This document shows positions 5,931 through 21,918 of a stretch of 64,000 bases of DNA, in pieces (positions within the stretch are counted from its first letter, which is position 1; every line of letters begins with the position of its first letter). The stretch covers positions 13,434 to 77,433 of the forward strand of contig CACPAS010000001.1 in NCBI GenBank assembly GCA_902632055.1, written 5' to 3'. The translations under genes were made by a program, and so were the position numbers. The notes beneath the pieces were generated by a model. It was not told where the DNA came from and did no database searches. It was given only the letters and a program-made list of their open reading frames with translations. The DNA is from an uncultured OCS116 cluster bacterium (GTDB lineage Bacteria > Pseudomonadota > Alphaproteobacteria > Rhizobiales > TMED25).

Positions 5931-6887
5931 TTATTTTTTAAACGTCTTATGAAAATATTTTTTTGGTATCATCAAGTGTACACCTTTATTACCATTTACC
6001 ACTTGAGTTATTCTCAAATCACCTACGTAGCTTAATAATGTGTAAGCATTGGATCGAGTCAAACCGCAAAATTCAGAAAGAAAATTTATCATTTCTCTTG
6101 TGGTAATTTTTACACATTCATCAAGATCAGGATCAAAAGCCATTGTAATGAAATAATCTTTATTTTCTGCAATTGGCCATGTTATTTGCATATCTGCTCT
6201 ATTTATTATTTTAAATTTTCCTCGCATGTCCATTTCGATAGCCGCTGTGCAAATCTCCCCGTCTCCTTGTGTTCCATGTCCATCGCCAATCGAGACCATT
6301 GCGCCATCTTCAAATACAGGTAAATACAATGTTGTTCCAACCTTCAACTCTTTATTATCCATATTGCCACCATTCTTTCTTGGTGGCACTGTTGATAGCT
6401 TACCCCATTCTATTGGAGGAGCGGTTGCTATGAGACCGAAGAATGGATCTAGATCAACTTCCATATTCCACGGAGTTTTTGCGATATTTTTATCCCTATC
6501 TATTTCAAGGTATGACATTTGCCTAGATTTAAAATCGTCGGGCAAGGCGCCTTTCAATGGAGCAACGCCTGTGTAAGCCCAATCGGAGTCAAGCTCAATT
6601 GAGAGGATTTCAATTTCCACTACATCACCAGCTTTGGAGCCTTGCACCTCAATCGGTCCTGTACATATATGACCACCCTGGAGTGTGCCTCGGATACTTT
6701 TTTCATGAATTTCTAACAAAGTCTCTTTTACCTCGAAAGGGCTGTTTCGCGTAACTTCTGGAGGCCCTGAAACCGACGTGATTTCTATCTCGTCACCGCT
6801 ATTGATTTTTAAAACTGGCTCAATTTCAGCTGAAAGAAATCCCCAGTGAACAGTCTCATGGTTTGCTTCAAGATAATGCTTCATCAA
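5931..6887 (-). CDS. acetamidase/formamidase (FmdA/AmdA) family amidohydrolase
   Basis: 318 aa. The N-terminal HETVHWGF block, the central GGNMD block and overall length match my recollection of the acetamidase/formamidase family. Confidence 0.7.
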   Translation of the reverse strand: MMKHYLEANHETVHWGFLSAEIEPVLKINSGDEIEITSVSGPPEVTRNSPFEVKETLLEIHEKSIRGTLQGGHICTGPIEVQGSKAGDVVEIEILSIELDSDWAYTGVAPLKGALPDDFKSRQMSYLEIDRDKNIAKTPWNMEVDLDPFFGLIATAPPIEWGKLSTVPPRKNGGNMDNKELKVGTTLYLPVFEDGAMVSIGDGHGTQGDGEICTAAIEMDMRGKFKIINRADMQITWPIAENKDYFITMAFDPDLDECVKITTREMINFLSEFCGLTRSNAYTLLSYVGDLRITQVVNGNKGVHLMIPKKYFHKTFKK

Positions 6888-6902
6888 TCCTCAATTATGA
6901 TA

Positions 6903-7784
6903 TTATTTTCTTTTTACACCAGCTAGATTGTCAGTTACTGCGCAAACGGAAGCAGTATCCTCTAATGCTCTACCCTGAGCGATGGCCGCTCTATGCATGT
7001 CTCCAGCTAGAGAAAATAGTGGTGTTGGGCACCCCATCTCATCTGCAAAATCCAAAATGACCGAAATATCTTTTTTTGTAATGAGATGATTTGCTGAAAC
7101 ATTTTCATCATATTTATTATCAACCATCATTTGGCCGCGAACCTCAAACATTCTTGAACTGCCAGCACTTGATTTAATAACGTCATATACCAACTGTGGA
7201 TCAATTCCAGCTTTCACTCCATAGGTAATTGCTTCAGCAGATGACACATTATGAATAACGACTAACAAATTTGCGATGTATTTCATTTTTGACCCTATAC
7301 CAAAATCACCAAGGTAGTGAACCTCTCTTCCCATTTTCTCAAATGCTGGCTTTACCATCTCAAATGAGGCTTGATCGCCACTTCCGAAAATAACAAGGTC
7401 TCCTGCCCAGGCTTGATGGCCTGTTCCACTGACAGGGCAATCAAGAAGAGTTATGCCTTTATCCGCTAGTATATCACGTGCTTTAATTTTATCTGATATT
7501 TTGAGTGTGCATGTATCTGCGATTATAACCTCTTTTCCTAACTTTGAAATCTCGTCTGCGACAGCTATTAAGGCGTCTGGATGTGGCAGTGATGTTATAA
7601 TCCGATCAACCTGATTTGCAACATCTGTTGGGGATGATGCCTTCGTCAATCTTGCATTACCTTGCGCTTCAAACCTTTCCTCATCGACATCAAATCCAAC
7701 TATTTCGTAACCCGCAGCACTGAGGTTCTTGGTATAGGCTGATCCCATAATACCAAGACCTATTATTCCTATTTTTTCTGTCAT
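6903..7784 (-). CDS. beta-hydroxyacid dehydrogenase (3-hydroxyisobutyrate/tartronate-semialdehyde reductase family)
   Basis: 293 aa. N-terminal GIIGLGIMGSAY Rossmann motif, conserved GSKMK(Y) catalytic-Lys block and a 6PGDH-like C-terminal domain. Confidence 0.85.
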   Translation of the reverse strand: MTEKIGIIGLGIMGSAYTKNLSAAGYEIVGFDVDEERFEAQGNARLTKASSPTDVANQVDRIITSLPHPDALIAVADEISKLGKEVIIADTCTLKISDKIKARDILADKGITLLDCPVSGTGHQAWAGDLVIFGSGDQASFEMVKPAFEKMGREVHYLGDFGIGSKMKYIANLLVVIHNVSSAEAITYGVKAGIDPQLVYDVIKSSAGSSRMFEVRGQMMVDNKYDENVSANHLITKKDISVILDFADEMGCPTPLFSLAGDMHRAAIAQGRALEDTASVCAVTDNLAGVKRK

Positions 7785-12901: not shown

Positions 12902-14203
12902 TTGATAAGATATATTAAGAAACGCTCTGAGACTAATAATGCGAGTGAAGATAAATCATCAATTGAAGAGACGGTTAGATCAATCCTAAGTGATATTAGG
13001 GAAAGAGGCGATGCTGCGCTGAAGCATTACTCTGAACATTTTGATAACTGGAGCCCAGAGAATTTCAGATTAACCCACCAAGAAATTGATGCTGCGATAT
13101 CGAAGTTAAATAAAACTGAAATTGAAGATATTAAATTTGCACAAAATCAGATCAAGAACTTTGCACAAAAACAGCTGGAGACAATGAATGAGCTTGAAGT
13201 TGAAACGCTTCCCGGAGTATTTCTAGGTCATAAGCACATACCAATCGAGAATGTAGGATGCTACGTGCCGGGTGGGAGGTATCCAATGGTTGCTTCGGCA
13301 CACATGAGCGTACTTACAGCTAAGGTTGCTGGAGCAAAAAGAGTAATTGCATGCGCCCCACCCTATAATGGAGGTGCACACCCAGCAACAATAGCAGCAA
13401 TGCATTTCGCTGGTGCAGATGAAATATACCTAATTGGGGGAGTTCAAGCAGTTGGAGCGATGGGAATTGGTACTGAAACAATTGAGTCTGTGAATATGAT
13501 TGTCGGCCCGGGGAACTCTTATGTCGCAGAAGCAAAAAAACAAATGTTCGGAGAGGTTGGGATTGACCTCATTGCTGGACCAACGGAAACATTAGTTATT
13601 GCTGATGACACGTCTGATGGAGAAATTTGTGCCACAGATTTACTTGGCCAAGCTGAGCATGGACCAACATCACCTGCTGTTTTAATCACTGACTCTGAGA
13701 GATTGGCTGAAGATACCCTAGGTGAAGTTCAAAGGCTACTCGAAATACTGCCAACTGCAAACATAACAAAAGGTTCTTGGGAAAACTTTGGTGAGATTAT
13801 ACTCTGTGAAAATCAAGAAGATATGTTATTTGAAGCGAATAAATTGGCCTACGAACATGTTCAAGTGATGACAAAAGATCCATCATACTTTTTGAAAAAT
13901 CTCAAAAACTTTGGCTCTCTATTTTTAGGGCAAGAAACTAATGTTGCATATGGTGATAAAGTTATTGGTACAAATCATACACTTCCAACCAGAGAGGCAA
14001 GCAAGTATACAGGCGGGCTTTGGGTTGGTAAATTCTTAAAAACATGCACCTATCAAAGAGTTGAGAATAGGGATACATCAGCACAAATTGGTGAGGTATG
14101 TTCGAGATTGTGTATGCTTGAAGGATTTGCTGGGCATGCTGAGCAAGCCAATATTCGGGTTAGAAGATACACAGGTAAGAATATACCCTATCCTGAAAAA
14201 TAA
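12902..14203 (+). CDS. histidinol-dehydrogenase-family NAD-dependent 4-electron alcohol dehydrogenase (paralogue; HpsN-like candidate)
   Basis: 433 aa with a TTG start. The HisD Zn/catalytic blocks are conserved: [32 protein letters not shown]. The gene context is catabolic, not histidine biosynthesis. Confidence 0.85.
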
Positions 14204-14205
14204 AA

Positions 14206-14988
14206 CTAACCAGCTAATTTATGATACGGCGCTTGAAGACCTTCGATAACTTTTGGCATTGTTTTGTCGATATCTAGGATCGGCAAGCCATGAGTGGGTG
14301 CAATATATTTTATATCAAGTTCATCCACCAACTCTTTTAACCTTTTTGTGTAAATCTCCATATCGACAAAGTTAGTCCAAAATAGAGCTAACTCAGCAAA
14401 AACTGCTGAAACATCAAATAAATCAAGTGTGTCAGCTTCTTCAGCAATCATTCCGCAATGGCCATCCCAATGATAATGGCTGTAAGCAAAGCCATCACCA
14501 GGAAAAAGAAGGTTATAAGGGGTTATATATCCCCACAAGGAGGTTCTCATATCTCTGACAACTGGTTCAGCTGCAATAAAATTCATGCCACCGCCAAGGT
14601 CAATAGAGTCACCGACTTCCATAGCTTTAAAATTGCTACTGTAATTGGGAAACGCCATATGATAATCGTTAACATCACCATGAATTTCTATATCAGGGTA
14701 AATATTCAGGAACCTACCCACACCTCCCGCATGAGGCGTCTCTTGATGCGTAATAAATATATATTTTAGTGGAACCTTTTTCTTTTCCAAAATACCAACA
14801 ATTTGAGCATGCAATTCATTGAAATCCTTTGGGTGTCCTGTTTCAACGAGTAAAGCCGCTTCTTCCCCAATCACCAGATATGACGAGTTGTAGGAATGAT
14901 ATATCTTTCCTTGGTACCTCTGCTCTAGGCAATCGCCAAGCCAGTATACATTTTTTAGTATTTCTCGTGGTAGCTTACTTTTAGACAT
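14206..14988 (-). CDS. metallo-beta-lactamase-fold protein resembling the flavodiiron-protein core, no flavodoxin domain
   Basis: 260 aa. VYWLGD...SYNSSYLV...LVETG, then THQETPH in place of HxExDH, LWGY in place of HWPD, LFPGDGF, and APTHG. Confidence 0.6.
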   Translation of the reverse strand: MSKSKLPREILKNVYWLGDCLEQRYQGKIYHSYNSSYLVIGEEAALLVETGHPKDFNELHAQIVGILEKKKVPLKYIFITHQETPHAGGVGRFLNIYPDIEIHGDVNDYHMAFPNYSSNFKAMEVGDSIDLGGGMNFIAAEPVVRDMRTSLWGYITPYNLLFPGDGFAYSHYHWDGHCGMIAEEADTLDLFDVSAVFAELALFWTNFVDMEIYTKRLKELVDELDIKYIAPTHGLPILDIDKTMPKVIEGLQAPYHKLAG

Positions 14989-14990
14989 TA

Positions 14991-15854
14991 TTACCTCATT
15001 TGATTTCTTGGCACATAATGTGCTTTTGTTTTTGTTATGTCAAGTTCATCTAAAATATTATCAAGTAATTCAAACTGTTTTTGAACTAACTTTTTTCCTT
15101 TAAATATTTTACCATAACCCGGTGCCAGTGTTTCAATATCGTATGAGTCGTATACTTTCTTTATGTTATCTCGTAAAAGCCTTGTCTTTGCACCTTCAAG
15201 CCACCAGTACCTTGTGTTTAGTAAAAAAGACTTGATGTAGCTGATTGAGAACTCCTCCTCAGGATTTGTTATTATCCAGTCCTCTGTGTTTTTTTCTGCA
15301 ATTCCGTAATTGAACATATCGGAGGAGAATAGAATTTTTGTTTTTTCATCATATATCCATGAGGTATTTATAAGTCTCAAGGGTGCACTTATTATCTGTA
15401 TATTTCTTCCTGTATTCTTACCAACCTCACAGTCGACCGTGCCCCTTAGAATATTCGTAGGTATCTCTTTGAGGCTCCAGTCTCTCTCTTTATCTGTAAA
15501 ATCAAACCAGTCAGGGCCTTCAGGGTGAGGTGAATAGAATGCTACAACATTAAAATTGTATGTAATCGCTTTTACATTTCCAACTGACATAAATTCGTTA
15601 ATCCTAAGCGGTATTATTGATAATGGCGTATCTGGATCAAGAATAGATTTCAGTTGATGTAATATTTTTTCTTGATGGAAGAGGTAGCCTGTATCAAACA
15701 AAAAGGCCCCACTATCCTCTTTTATTAAATAACAATTCAGAGGAACAAAGCCGTTTTCGTTTTGTGGATATGCACTCAATCGCCCGTCAAGTTTCACAAT
15801 ATTTTGTATTGAAAAAGCTTTATTAGGTGATAGTTCTATTATATTATCTTCCAA
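14991..15854 (-). CDS. degenerate paralogue of the adjacent MBL/flavodiiron-core-like protein (metal ligands mostly lost)
   Basis: 287 aa, 2 nt upstream of the partner gene. Shares xWxY...LFxxDxF and APxxG blocks with it, but has LRINEFM instead of HxExDH and APGYG instead of APTHG. Confidence 0.45.
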   Translation of the reverse strand: MEDNIIELSPNKAFSIQNIVKLDGRLSAYPQNENGFVPLNCYLIKEDSGAFLFDTGYLFHQEKILHQLKSILDPDTPLSIIPLRINEFMSVGNVKAITYNFNVVAFYSPHPEGPDWFDFTDKERDWSLKEIPTNILRGTVDCEVGKNTGRNIQIISAPLRLINTSWIYDEKTKILFSSDMFNYGIAEKNTEDWIITNPEEEFSISYIKSFLLNTRYWWLEGAKTRLLRDNIKKVYDSYDIETLAPGYGKIFKGKKLVQKQFELLDNILDELDITKTKAHYVPRNQMR

Positions 15855-15935
15855 GTTAACCCCCTTAAGAAATACGTATTAGTAGCACCATTTAAATAAA
15901 ATTTTAAGTTAAAAATTACTTCTGTATGAAGAGCC

Positions 15936-19444: not shown

Positions 19445-20227
19445 TTATACGCTTCTAATTAAACCGCCGTCTACTCTTATGTTACTACCGTTTATATAAC
19501 TTGCTTTGTCACTTACTAAAAAACATAAAACATTGGCAAATTCCTCAGGAGTTCCGTATCTTTTAATTGGTATTTCCTCAGATGATATTGATATTGCCTC
19601 ATCGTATGAAACTCCAAGTGACTTTGCTCTTTGTGTGTTTACCTCTAGGGTGCGCTCGGTGGTAATGCGCCCTGGCATCACTGTATTAACTGTAATACCA
19701 TGCACTGCAATTTGGTTTGAGAGGGTCTTCATGAACCCTGTTATGGCTGGCCGTAAGATATTTGAAGCTGATAAGTTATCGATTGGCTGCACTACACCAG
19801 ATGATGTTATAGTTATTACCCTGCCCCAATTCTTTTCAATCATATTTGGTATAAGGCTATTCGTAATCTTAATGGTATTTAAAACTATAGATTTAATGAA
19901 GTTGTCCAAAATATTATAATCTATGTTAGTTGGACTCGATGTCGGGGGTCCCCCTGTATTATTAATGAGAATATCATATTTTCTATTGTTAATATCCGCT
20001 AATAGTGAGCTGACATCGCGATCTTTTGTTAAATCGGCCACAAAGTAATCTAGACTGACCTTATGCACTTTTAGGATCTGTTCGGATGCGATCTTGAGTT
20101 TCCCTGAGTCCCTTGCAATCAATGTAATATTGCAACCCTCTGCGGCAAGAGAATTTGCTACAGCCCTACCAAGACCTGAAGAAGCACCAAAAATAATTGC
20201 ATTCTTTGATTTTAATCCAAGATCCAT
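19445..20227 (-). CDS. short-chain dehydrogenase/reductase
   Basis: The ORF-track start at 20284 runs into the tRNA. The ATG at 20227 gives MDLGLKSKNAIIFGASSGLGRA (Rossmann motif) and NNTGG. 10 nt upstream of the ThDP enzyme gene. Confidence 0.85.
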   Translation of the reverse strand: MDLGLKSKNAIIFGASSGLGRAVANSLAAEGCNITLIARDSGKLKIASEQILKVHKVSLDYFVADLTKDRDVSSLLADINNRKYDILINNTGGPPTSSPTNIDYNILDNFIKSIVLNTIKITNSLIPNMIEKNWGRVITITSSGVVQPIDNLSASNILRPAITGFMKTLSNQIAVHGITVNTVMPGRITTERTLEVNTQRAKSLGVSYDEAISISSEEIPIKRYGTPEEFANVLCFLVSDKASYINGSNIRVDGGLIRSV

Positions 20228-20242
20228 ATTTATCCTTATGAA

Positions 20243-20327
20243 TGGTGCCCCTGGCCGGACTCGAACCAGCACGCCCGAAAGCAACAGATTTTGAGTCTGT
20301 CGTGTCTACCAATTTCACCACAGGGGC
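20243..20327 (-). tRNA. tRNA-Leu (anticodon CAA), class II, CCA encoded
   Basis: The reverse complement reads GCCCCTGTGGTGAAATTGGTAGACACGACAGACTCAAAATCTGTTGCTTTCGGGCGTGCTGGTTCGAGTCCGGCCAGGGGCACCA. It has a 7-bp acceptor stem, anticodon loop CTCAAAA, a long variable arm and GGTTCGAGTCC in the T-arm. Confidence 0.9.
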
Positions 20328-20349: not shown

Positions 20350-20688
20350 CTAGATAGCTTGCTCATTCGTCTCACCAGTTCTTATTCGAACGGCAGAGTC
20401 AATATCCCACATAAATATCTTACCGTCACCAATTTTTCCAGTATTTGCAGTTTCTGAAATTGTCTCGATAACTTTTTCAGAAATACTCTCTTCACAAACT
20501 ATTTCAATTTTGAATTTTGGAATGTAATTAATTTGATACTCGGCACCTCTATATATTTCTGTATGACCTTTTGTCCTTCCAAAACCTTTTGCCTCAGTAA
20601 CTGTCATACCCATAACACCAACATCGTGTAATGCCGTTCTAACATCTTCAAGTTTATGTGTTTGAATAATTGCCATTATCATTTTCAT
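20350..20688 (-). CDS. glnK: nitrogen regulatory protein P-II
   Basis: 112 aa. T-loop GFGRTKGHTEIYRGAEY with the conserved Tyr. Lies immediately downstream of amtB. Confidence 0.95.
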   Translation of the reverse strand: MKMIMAIIQTHKLEDVRTALHDVGVMGMTVTEAKGFGRTKGHTEIYRGAEYQINYIPKFKIEIVCEESISEKVIETISETANTGKIGDGKIFMWDIDSAVRIRTGETNEQAI

Positions 20689-20706
20689 TTTTATACTCCC
20701 AAAGTA

Positions 20707-21918
20707 TTATAGTTTATAACCTGTTTCACCATGAGCCTTATAGTCGAGACCTTCAATCTCATCCTCATCATCAACTCGAAGTCCTGTCACGGACCTAGCT
20801 ACGCTTACAATTATTACCGTGGCTATCACACACCAAACTGCTGTTGCTAATATTCCTACAACTTGGATTCCAATTTGATCCAAAACAGTTACACCTTCAC
20901 TTAGACCGACACCACCGAAAGCTGGAATAATGAGAACTGCTACAAGTAGAGTGCCTGTTGCACCTCCAACACCATGAACGGCGAAAACATCAAGTGAGTC
21001 ATCAATGTTAAACTTAACCTTAACAAGGTCTACGCAATAATAACAAACAACGCCACCAGCCAGGCCTAAAATAAATCCCCCCATTGGCCCAACAAAACCT
21101 GATGCTGGCGTTATGGTTGCTAAACCTGCGATCGTTCCAGTTACTAGTCCAACCAAACTTGGCTTTCCAAACCTAAACCATTCAATTATCAACCAGACTA
21201 ATGACGCAGTAGCTGCAGAAATGTGTGTAACTAGTAATGCCATTGATGCATCTGAACCCGCTGTTAGTGCGCTACCCGCATTGAATCCAAACCACCCAAT
21301 CCATAGCATGCAGGCGCCAACCATAACCATCCAAGGAGCGTGAGGTGGTTGGACTTGATCTGGATATCCAGATCTACTACCAAGCATTTTTGCAATAATA
21401 AGCGCTGAAACACCTGCTGTGACGTGAACAACAATACCCCCGGCAAAATCGTAAACACCAAGTGCACTCAGCCATCCACCGCCCCATACCCAATGACAAA
21501 CGGGCGCATAGACAAATATAAGCCAGAGTGCTGAAATTAACAGAACAGCGCCAAATTTTATTCGTTCTACATAAGCGCCAACGATCAGAGCTGGAGTTAT
21601 TATTGCAAATGTCATTTGAAATGAGAAAAATAATGATTCTGGAATTGATCCAATCGTAGCATCTCGTGATACACCTGCTAGGAATAATTTTGATAGATCT
21701 CCAACATAAGCACCATCACCCGAGAAGGCCAGTGAATAGGCAACAGCCAACCACGTAACTGACGCAAGACAGCAAATTGCAGCACAGTGCATCAAGACAG
21801 ATAAAATATTTTTGGACCTAACTAAACCCGCATAAAAAAGAGCTAACCCAGGCATTGTCATGAATAAAACAAGTGCGGTCGCAGTCATTATCCAACTAGT
21901 ATCTCCAGAATTAACCAT
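20707..21918 (-). CDS. amtB: ammonium transporter
   Basis: 403 aa, 11-TM Amt family. Has DFAGGIVVH and VHGVGG blocks carrying the twin-His pore residues. Confidence 0.95.
   Translation of the reverse strand: MVNSGDTSWIMTATALVLFMTMPGLALFYAGLVRSKNILSVLMHCAAICCLASVTWLAVAYSLAFSGDGAYVGDLSKLFLAGVSRDATIGSIPESLFFSFQMTFAIITPALIVGAYVERIKFGAVLLISALWLIFVYAPVCHWVWGGGWLSALGVYDFAGGIVVHVTAGVSALIIAKMLGSRSGYPDQVQPPHAPWMVMVGACMLWIGWFGFNAGSALTAGSDASMALLVTHISAATASLVWLIIEWFRFGKPSLVGLVTGTIAGLATITPASGFVGPMGGFILGLAGGVVCYYCVDLVKVKFNIDDSLDVFAVHGVGGATGTLLVAVLIIPAFGGVGLSEGVTVLDQIGIQVVGILATAVWCVIATVIIVSVARSVTGLRVDDEDEIEGLDYKAHGETGYKL

Follow-up and report, generated by a model that had tools for sequence, protein, structure and literature searches.

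A co-conserved pair of flavodiiron-core-like proteins without flavodoxin domains in an uncultured alphaproteobacterium of the OCS116 cluster

The A/B gene pair

The DNA analysed here is a stretch of 64,000 nucleotides (hereafter the window, whose numbering is used unless another locus is named) from an uncultured OCS116 cluster bacterium (assembly GCA_902632055.1, contig CACPAS010000001.1, positions 13,434 to 77,433). It carries on its minus strand two adjacent genes, here called A and B, encoding distant paralogues with a metallo-β-lactamase (MBL) fold. Gene B (14206..14988; 260 aa, ATG start) encodes a putative metal-site subunit whose fold resembles the core of flavodiiron proteins (FDPs). 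Gene A, located directly upstream (14991..15854; 287 aa, TTG start), encodes a putative non-metal paralogue, whose MBL fold is likewise similar to FDP cores and to the oxygen-binding diiron protein ODP and which retains no histidine ligand. The joint conservation of the two genes and their natural fusions, described below, strongly support the view that A and B would be the subunits of one heteromer, composed of a metal-binding subunit and its non-metal paralogue.

Direct reading of the junction (14986..14997, minus strand) gives GAGG, TAA, two nucleotides and ATG. The TAA stop codon of A (14993-14991) is thus separated by 2 nt from the ATG of B (14988-14986), and the Shine-Dalgarno sequence of B (GAGG, 14997-14994) lies within the last codons of A, 5 nt ahead of this ATG. 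A preliminary description of the locus, made from the sequence alone, had reported two minus-strand open reading frames (ORFs) of 287 and 260 aa, 2 nt apart and translationally coupled; the coordinates and the location of the Shine-Dalgarno sequence of B inside A bear out both points. A terminator-like site was searched for on the minus strand between A and B and none was found. Upstream of A, an 81-nt region (15855..15935, minus strand), common to a divergent EamA/DMT (drug/metabolite transporter) gene, contains the Shine-Dalgarno sequence of A (AAGGGGG, 15866-15860), located ahead of the TTG. The same 81 nt include a candidate sigma-70-like site (TTCATA, 18-nt spacer, TAAAAT; 15930..15901), proposed on its match to the consensus alone. 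An Rfam scan produced no family match near the pair or in this upstream region. On the other side, the stop codon of B sits 2 nt from that of a convergent gene annotated as 'HisD-like' (12902-14203, plus strand).

Fold, family and paralogy of A and B

Both proteins score above the gathering cut-off (27.2 bits) of the Pfam family PF19583 (ODP), with 37.3 bits for B and 30.5 bits for A, the latter covering only the C-terminal half of the profile. With PF00753 (Lactamase_B), B scores above the cut-off (32.3 bits) and A below it (17.1 bits). These were the only domains recovered in the scan of A and B, in which no flavodoxin and no flavin-binding domain or motif was detected. In searches of the PDB (phmmer/hmmsearch), B used as a single sequence matched the cores of NorV, FprA and Moorella FprA at 1e-12 and, used as a profile, FDP cores down to 1.2e-15, the FDP alignments stopping where the core ends (NorV residue 230 to 233). 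Protein A had no match in the PDB as a single sequence and a weak match to ODP as a profile.

The AlphaFold (AF2) models are of good quality for both proteins (pLDDT 86.6 and pTM 0.88 for B; pLDDT 88.5 and pTM 0.90 for A), and the pLDDT of A falls below 50 only at residues 87-90, i.e., in the former metal loop. Foldseek searches of the PDB with the model of B placed FDP cores on top, FprA (2ohh, TM 0.75) being followed by NorV and ROO (range 0.70-0.75). For A, the best matches (TM 0.63-0.68) were the metal-poor core of Flv1 (6h0d, 6h0c), ROO (1e5d), 4fek and ODP structures (6qrq, 6qwo, 6qnm). MBL-fold proteins were matched in hundreds by both models, and profile and structural searches agree in placing the pair within this superfamily. 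No persulfide dioxygenase was present among the PDB or NCBIfam matches of the pair. The earlier view of two flavodiiron-core-like proteins devoid of flavodoxin domains is therefore in line with the Pfam, PDB and Foldseek results, the best matches of both models being FDP or ODP cores.

The two proteins are also related to each other, as had been proposed: hhalign aligned A and B over 197 columns with a probability of 87.8% (E 3.3e-6, 18% identity), and plain BLAST matched A to the B-modules of natural fusion proteins at about 3e-9. A and B are thus distant paralogues.

The putative metal site of B

Neither protein contains the full set of FDP ligands (H-x-E-x-D-H ... H ... D ... H) or the canonical motif of MBL hydrolases (H-x-H-x-D-H), the corresponding segments reading H-Q-E-T-P-H in B and I-N-E-F-M-S in A. 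The ligand positions of B are H81-Q-E83-T-P85-H86, D146, D165 and H233. In three independent FDP alignments, the histidine of the FDP motif 'HWPDS' falls without gaps opposite D146 of B ('RDMRTS'); compared with FDPs, B therefore has five identical ligands, a replacement of His by Asp146 and a loss of Asp at Pro85. The preliminary description had read H81-x-E83-x-P85-H86, D165 and H233 correctly, but it had placed L151 (in LWGY) at the position of the FDP HWPD motif, five residues away from the invariant Asp146. Its suggestion that the site could be mononuclear is needless, six ligand-capable residues being left in B (three histidines and three carboxylates), a set richer in carboxylate than that of FDPs.

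We examined these positions in 54 full-length representatives of clusters at 50% identity, obtained by an exhaustive profile search. D165 is kept in all 54 proteins, E83, H86 and D146 in 53 each, H81 in 52 and H233 in 51. By contrast with FDPs, no representative has Asp or Glu at position 85, which is Pro in 42 of them and A, V, G, T or N in the rest. Several other residues are nearly invariant in the B family and absent from NorV (C20, 51/54; H31, 50/54; W152, 54/54; C178, 52/54), and H171, present in all 54 proteins, is common to NorV, where it corresponds to the second-sphere histidine of FDPs. The motif-2 Asp of H-x-H-x-D-H is required by MBL hydrolases, and a Glu at the position of E83 is the hallmark of the diiron branch of the superfamily; the absence of the motif-2 Asp from all 54 representatives thus argues against a canonical hydrolytic mechanism.

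These alignments suggest a dinuclear centre in which D165 would bridge the two sites, with H81, E83 and D146 completing site 1 and H86 and H233 completing site 2. With the FDP Asp replaced by Pro85, site 2 would gain one more open coordination position.

The former metal site of A

Two alignment methods place I85, E87, M89, S90, a gap or L161, D179 and Y247 of A at the positions of the FDP ligands. Protein A therefore retains Glu87 in addition to the bridging Asp179, and not solely the Asp as initially described, and none of the histidines. In the A-modules of fused and divergent relatives, position 89 is still occupied by Asp or Glu, position 90 by Cys or Ser and position 247 by His, so that the complete loss of the site is confined to the subfamily of the window. 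The contigs of two divergent unfused relatives (P0245, P0253) are short and their context is uninformative.

Across phyla, 36 sequences of A share the invariant residues R84, N86, E87, N93, R160, T164, W166, D169, D179, the segment LLNTRYWWxEG, R228 and Y247, and the protein can be recognized by the motifs R-I-N-E-F-M-S, PxRLIxTxW, LFSSDMF, LLNTRYWWLEG and APGYG. Such an invariant set in the region of the former active site is more in keeping with a repurposed pocket than with a dead one. In the subfamily of the window, A would bind no metal, invariant Arg, Asn, Trp and Tyr residues having apparently reshaped its cleft. The protein most likely stabilizes B and may contribute to the binding of a substrate, a cofactor or a partner.

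Selection, distribution and natural fusions

Comparison with five OCS116 relatives, for which synonymous divergence is unsaturated (dS 0.63-0.90), gave ratios of nonsynonymous to synonymous substitution rates (dN/dS) of 0.019-0.032 for A and 0.011-0.017 for B. Both genes are under very strong purifying selection and neither is decaying. The preliminary description of one protein as half degenerate and the other as almost fully degenerate is misleading, because the substituted positions are invariant across phyla and dN/dS lies between 0.011 and 0.032. The possibility that A is a decaying pseudogene is ruled out by these ratios and by its invariant motifs.

Proteins with 98-99% identity to those of the window are encoded by OCS116-cluster single-cell genomes and metagenome-assembled genomes (MAGs). 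More widely, searches for homologues yielded no fewer than 633 B clusters and 1726 A clusters at 90% identity, annotated solely as 'hypothetical', 'MBL fold metallo-hydrolase' or 'flavorubredoxin'. A scan of GTDB with two peptide patterns, with one genome per species, detected a relative of B in 358 of 185,579 species genomes. The best 80 of these 358 carriers are all MAGs or single-cell genomes, and belong to OCS116, SAR116, Rhodospirillaceae, Hyphomicrobiales, Nitrospinota, Tectomicrobia and Xanthobacteraceae.

Among 86 loci from 21 lineage groups searched with tblastn, both genes are present in 85; in the last one (L064), B lies at the edge of the contig and A could not be scored. In 84 of the 85 loci, A immediately precedes B on the same strand, and the junctions in relatives range from -14 to +11 nt. 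The sole exception is L063, where an alpha/beta-hydrolase-like gene (290 aa, opposite strand) separates A from B (5998-7055). The co-occurrence of the two genes, raised from a single genome by the preliminary description, thus holds in all loci of the survey that could be scored.

The exhaustive profile search also revealed natural A-to-B fusion proteins (534-580 aa, at least six clusters at 50% identity), in which the two modules are joined by Pro/Ala-rich linkers of about 30-40 residues. They are encoded by the cultured isolates Paenarthrobacter sp. NPDC089714 (WP_400337192.1), Nitratireductor alexandrii (WP_127600721.1) and Antarcticimicrobium luteum (TDK53005.1), and by Galbitalea MAGs; one exact fusion sequence was found on 168 contigs. 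The A protein of the window matches the N-terminal halves of the fusions at 1e-19 to 1e-36 and the B protein their C-terminal halves at 1e-40 to 1e-90. Together with the coupled junction, these fusions are strong indirect evidence that A and B act as one protein. The heteromer initially envisaged, with a metal-binding subunit and a pseudoenzyme partner, is thus indirectly supported by pairing and fusions, and the view of either protein as a degenerate relic finds no support.

Two diverged pairs are present in the MAG PASR01 (Rhodospirillaceae SAT177; L033 and L047), in different neighbourhoods, with 47% identity between the A proteins and 68% between the B proteins. This fits an enzyme family whose members differ in specificity.

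Gene neighbourhoods of the pair

We clustered the ORFs located within about 9 kb of the pair in the 86 loci. A and B are the only families common to all 21 lineage groups, and the next commonest ones are generic, i.e., short-chain dehydrogenases/reductases (SDRs, 11/21 groups) and HIBADH-like dehydrogenases (7/21). A census of Pfam families among 130 neighbours in 20 lineage groups, considered for its 25 commonest families, likewise revealed no dominant family. It yielded SDRs, HIBADH-like dehydrogenases, ABC permeases, acyl-coenzyme A (acyl-CoA) dehydrogenases, alpha/beta hydrolases and amidases, with no chemotaxis family among these 25. The catabolic islands around the pair, which vary between loci, also hold family III CoA-transferases, and no kinase or transcription-factor gene is conserved near the pair. 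Conserved neighbours were rejected as a guide to function, only A and B being universal and the other families generic and variable.

In the window, the pair belongs to a large catabolic island (4200-25900, the same region as L092 1-20783). The island encodes two thiamine diphosphate-dependent enzymes (PRK08199 type), two SDRs, a PF04199 cyclase-type hydrolase, a PuuE-like deacetylase, a family III CoA-transferase, a 2-oxoglutarate-Fe(II) oxygenase, a HIBADH-like dehydrogenase and an FmdA/AmdA amidase. A tRNA gene (20246-20327, minus strand; Rfam 58.3 bits) overlaps the 5′ end of the listed ORF 19445..20284, and the real SDR gene therefore starts further downstream, with 260 aa as called in L092. 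The island is adjoined by ordinary genes for GlnK (P-II) and the ammonium transporter AmtB (20350-21918, minus strand).

The pair itself is flanked by TusA, DoxX and EamA genes. Among solved structures, the convergent 'HisD-like' protein is nearest to HpsN-type 3-dehydrogenases of (R)-2,3-dihydroxypropane-1-sulfonate (DHPS) or sulfopropanediol (8wwe, 8v35; 374 bits, 1e-110), while true histidinol dehydrogenases reach 279 bits at most. Instead of HisD, the protein is probably a dehydrogenase acting on a sulfonate or a diol. The setting between a HisD-like operon and a DMT/TusA/DoxX group, to which attention had been drawn before, is indeed present here but is kept only in close relatives (2-3 of the 21 groups). 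Other genes possibly related to sulfur are located near the pair elsewhere: in L028 and L082, a TauE/SafE sulfite exporter gene immediately follows the pair on its own strand, and in 20 Nitrospinota-type loci a DUF442/BLH_phosphatase gene lies 1.4 kb downstream. This sulfur theme concerns 5/21 locus groups, from about three independent lineages, and, having been noticed after the fact, provides no more than a lead.

In three distant lineages, the pair is adjoined by genes encoding AibH/SfbO-like Amidohydro_2 oxygenases and a small Rieske ferredoxin. The pair and the genes for the Rieske and Amidohydro_2 proteins form an apparent shared operon in L003 (7388-10819); the Galbitalea fusion gene is found in a similar apparent operon with Rieske and Amidohydro_2 genes in L094 (8001-12314), and likewise in L095; in L052 (3419-7275), the Rieske and Amidohydro_2 genes are divergent and located just upstream of the pair. 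The Rieske proteins of the apparent operons in L003 and L094/L095 have 116-121 aa, and the Amidohydro_2 proteins are closest to 8sm6-8sm9, AibH1H2 (6m1w, 8ful) and PtmU3. No reductase gene is present nearby in L003, L052 or L094. The literature on amidohydrolase-related oxygenases that we consulted (including PMC10811679) does not mention an MBL partner, and the repeated linkage of A/B to AibH-like oxygenase and Rieske genes is new.

In Rhodobacteraceae (L086-L089, 2060-17668), the fused A-B gene is divergent to a TRAP transporter, and its neighbours encode four family III CoA-transferases, an acyl-CoA dehydrogenase, a DUF35 and SCP-x thiolase pair and a LigXa-like Rieske oxygenase; this region looks like a CoA-dependent catabolic cluster. 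One of these Rhodobacteraceae metagenome contigs carries, a few kb from the fusion, a Cas13a-type gene (PF28192, PF28350; L086 1-1089) and an Xre/RES toxin-antitoxin pair, both probably unrelated to A/B.

Putative function of A/B

The reading that we prefer, although we hold it tentatively and rate it somewhat short of an even chance, is that A/B is a non-haem di-metal protein of alpha/beta composition that reacts with O2, with B as the catalytic subunit and A as its repurposed non-metal partner. A/B would be a cytoplasmic alpha/beta hetero-oligomer derived from two ancient paralogues of the flavodiiron-core/ODP branch of the MBL fold. The complex may bind and activate O2 at a di-iron, possibly mixed Fe/Mn, centre and would function as an oxidase or oxygenase of a small organic compound, in the setting of catabolic gene islands, rather than as an FDP-type O2/NO reductase or a hydrolase. 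We infer in this model the formation of the heteromer, the identity of the metal, the O2 chemistry and the roles of A, C20 and C178.

To our knowledge, every characterized member of the flavodiiron/ODP branch binds or reduces O2 or NO, and B keeps six ligand-capable residues, which argues for O2 activation, as do the family-wide absence of the motif-2 Asp and the aerobic and catabolic contexts of the pair, often with other oxygenases. An enzyme rather than a housekeeping factor is suggested by the two diverged pairs in one MAG, the variable catabolic islands and the nearby oxygenases. The absence of both a flavodoxin domain and a conserved electron donor argues against an FDP-type reductase and leaves either a reductant-independent oxidation or unlinked donors.

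Several observations weigh against this preferred assignment. Ferredoxin, flavodoxin, rubredoxin and reductase genes are neither frequent nor conserved beside the pair, so that an oxygenase in need of a reductant would rely on unlinked partners. The Rieske ferredoxin was considered as the donor of A/B itself and rejected, the adjacent AibH/SfbO-like oxygenase being its simpler partner, since amidohydrolase-related dinuclear oxygenases are thought to use such small Rieske ferredoxins (PMC10811679). In Nitrospinota, the pair is divergent beside dnaX and has no catabolic context. Upstream of A, no operator responsive to O2, iron or NO was found: in 21 lineage representatives, FNR/CRP, Fur, Irr, RirA, NsrR, IscR and LysR-type boxes did not outnumber those in shuffled sequence. 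The neighbours are largely hydrolases and dehydrogenases, which would fit a hydrolase equally well, and metal binding by B is deduced from alignments.

A hydrolytic function is nevertheless unlikely in our opinion. B would in this case descend from an FDP-like ancestor and be a hydrolase with a dinuclear centre (Zn, Mn or Fe), for example a lactonase, thioesterase or amidase, and A would be a scaffolding pseudoenzyme, comparable to CPSF100 in its pair with CPSF73. Most MBL-fold enzymes are indeed hydrolases, no redox partner is conserved, and the neighbours are rich in amidases, alpha/beta hydrolases, dienelactone hydrolases and PF04199 cyclase-type hydrolases, with genes for CoA-transferases or acyl-CoA enzymes also common nearby; however, the nearest relatives in both sequence and fold are redox or O2-binding proteins, and the motif H-x-E-x-P-H combines the Glu83 of the diiron branch with the loss of the motif-2 Asp in 54/54 proteins. 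The similarity of B to NorV, FprA and ROO could instead point to a 'split' FDP reducing O2, NO or H2O2 at the diiron site of B, with electrons supplied by a soluble ferredoxin, a rubredoxin, a Rieske ferredoxin or a cofactor held by A in place of the flavodoxin domain. The conserved Arg/Asn/Trp/Tyr-rich pocket of A could hold an anionic cofactor, a small Rieske ferredoxin adjoins the pair in L003, L052 and L094, and the FLVA/FLVB heteromer still reduces O2 with a non-canonical partner (PMC11408035). We regard such a scavenging reductase as distinctly improbable, given that no flavin-binding domain or motif was detected, that no electron donor is conserved and no NO- or O2-responsive operator was found upstream, and that the adjacent amidohydrolase-related oxygenase accounts for the Rieske protein. 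A detoxification enzyme would also not usually be expected in several diverged copies per genome or in catabolic contexts.

The sulfur-related neighbours (the convergent HpsN-like gene and the TusA, DoxX and EamA genes flanking the pair, TauE/SafE downstream in L028 and L082, and DUF442 in 20 Nitrospinota-type loci) suggest yet another activity, namely a dioxygenase that oxidizes sulfane sulfur, or that cleaves or oxidizes an organosulfonate intermediate with release of sulfite. By analogy with MBL-fold persulfide dioxygenases, the two family-invariant cysteines C20 and C178 would serve as carriers of the sulfur substrate or bring it into position, and a dioxygenase requires no reductant. This theme was, however, recognized post hoc and the HpsN-like gene is adjacent in three related groups only; the ligand set differs from that of ETHE1-type enzymes and no rhodanese, SQR or Sox genes were seen, making this activity very improbable. 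We consider least likely of all that A/B is a sensor or regulator which, like ODP, would reversibly bind O2 or Fe(II) and signal through protein contacts without substrate turnover. Both proteins score above the ODP threshold of Pfam, ODP structures are among the best fold matches of A, and ODP is the sole characterized single-domain member of the branch; against such a role, no chemotaxis, kinase or transcription-factor gene is conserved nearby, the ligand set of B is altered, several copies may occur per genome and the contexts are catabolic.

The di-metal oxidase or oxygenase that we prefer can be formulated more boldly, in a version that is possible but doubtful: A/B would represent a new class of two-subunit di-metal oxygenases/oxidases built on the flavodiiron/MBL fold and acting on abundant marine metabolites, possibly C3 sulfonates or sulfane sulfur. 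B would provide an opened carboxylate-rich site and two invariant cysteines, and A, as a repurposed paralogue free of metal, the pocket for a substrate or cofactor; no dedicated reductase would be needed, as in MIOX/PhnZ-type or dioxygenase chemistry. The idea of C3 sulfonates or sulfane sulfur comes from the HpsN-like, TusA, TauE and DUF442 neighbours.

Comparison with known systems

The closest analogue of A/B is the FLVA/FLVB pair (Flv1/Flv3, Flv2/Flv4) of cyanobacteria, algae and mosses. The genes for FLVA and FLVB (Flv1/Flv3) are always paired, the diiron ligands of one member are replaced by neutral or basic residues, the two proteins form a stable heteromer, and Symbiodiniaceae make both as one polypeptide (PMC11408035). 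A and B, known here from genes, are similarly paired paralogues with a non-canonical partner, their fusions parallel the polypeptide of Symbiodiniaceae, and the Flv1 core (6h0d, 6h0c) is the best structural match of A. We found no paper describing the A/B family; the preliminary statement that such a pair has no described function holds for the flavodoxin-less form, for which we found no precedent, but the concept of paired FDPs is precedented by FLVA/FLVB (PMC11408035). The FLV proteins use ferredoxin or NAD(P)H to reduce O2 and possess a flavodoxin and a C-terminal flavin reductase domain; both domains are missing from A and B, B is itself non-canonical (Pro85, Asp146) and the hosts, among them OCS116, SAR116, Nitrospinota and Actinobacteria, are non-photosynthetic.

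With class A FDPs (NorV core, FprA, ROO), B shares the MBL-like core, the H-x-E-x-x-H motif, the bridging Asp, the C-terminal His-Gly and His171. It differs from them by Pro85, Asp146 and the extra invariant residues Cys20, Cys178 and Trp152, and by its presumably obligate paralogous partner. A and B also lack flavodoxin and FMN, so that the head-to-tail electron path of FDPs would be impossible. ODP, the oxygen-binding chemotaxis sensor of Treponema denticola and Thermotoga maritima, retains the full ligand set and is encoded with chemotaxis genes. Like A and B, it is a single-domain FDP-like MBL protein (about 250 aa) of the PF19583 family without flavodoxin, whereas A/B has altered or lost ligands, two subunits and no chemotaxis genes nearby.

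Outside of this branch, the hydroxylases of soluble diiron monooxygenases (alpha/beta) and AibH1H2 resemble A/B in pairing a di-metal subunit with a homologue that lacks the dinuclear site, on folds that are unrelated to that of A/B (ferritin-like and amidohydrolase TIM barrel, respectively). They receive electrons from a small Rieske ferredoxin, whereas no dedicated donor or reductase is conserved with A/B. CPSF73/CPSF100 and IntS11/IntS9 also combine an MBL catalytic subunit with a paralogue devoid of metal ligands but are eukaryotic beta-CASP zinc nucleases with an H-x-H-x-D-H motif, functionally unrelated to A/B. The persulfide dioxygenases ETHE1, Blh and CstB use a mononuclear Fe bound by two His and one Asp on an H-x-H-x-D-H scaffold, with glutathione persulfide as substrate, and the scaffold motif of B differs from theirs.

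The flavodiiron/ODP branch is known to us only for O2/NO reduction and O2 sensing, always with a full site of seven ligands. A/B is a widespread and very strongly constrained offshoot of this branch, common in uncultured marine Alphaproteobacteria and Nitrospinota, which appears to have lost its flavin domain, changed two ligands, acquired invariant cysteines and come to depend on a paralogue devoid of metal. Solving the reaction of A/B, which the fusions in cultured Nitratireductor, Antarcticimicrobium and Paenarthrobacter make experimentally tractable, would extend the chemistry of the fold and give a function to proteins annotated as 'MBL fold metallo-hydrolase / flavorubredoxin' in ocean metagenomes.

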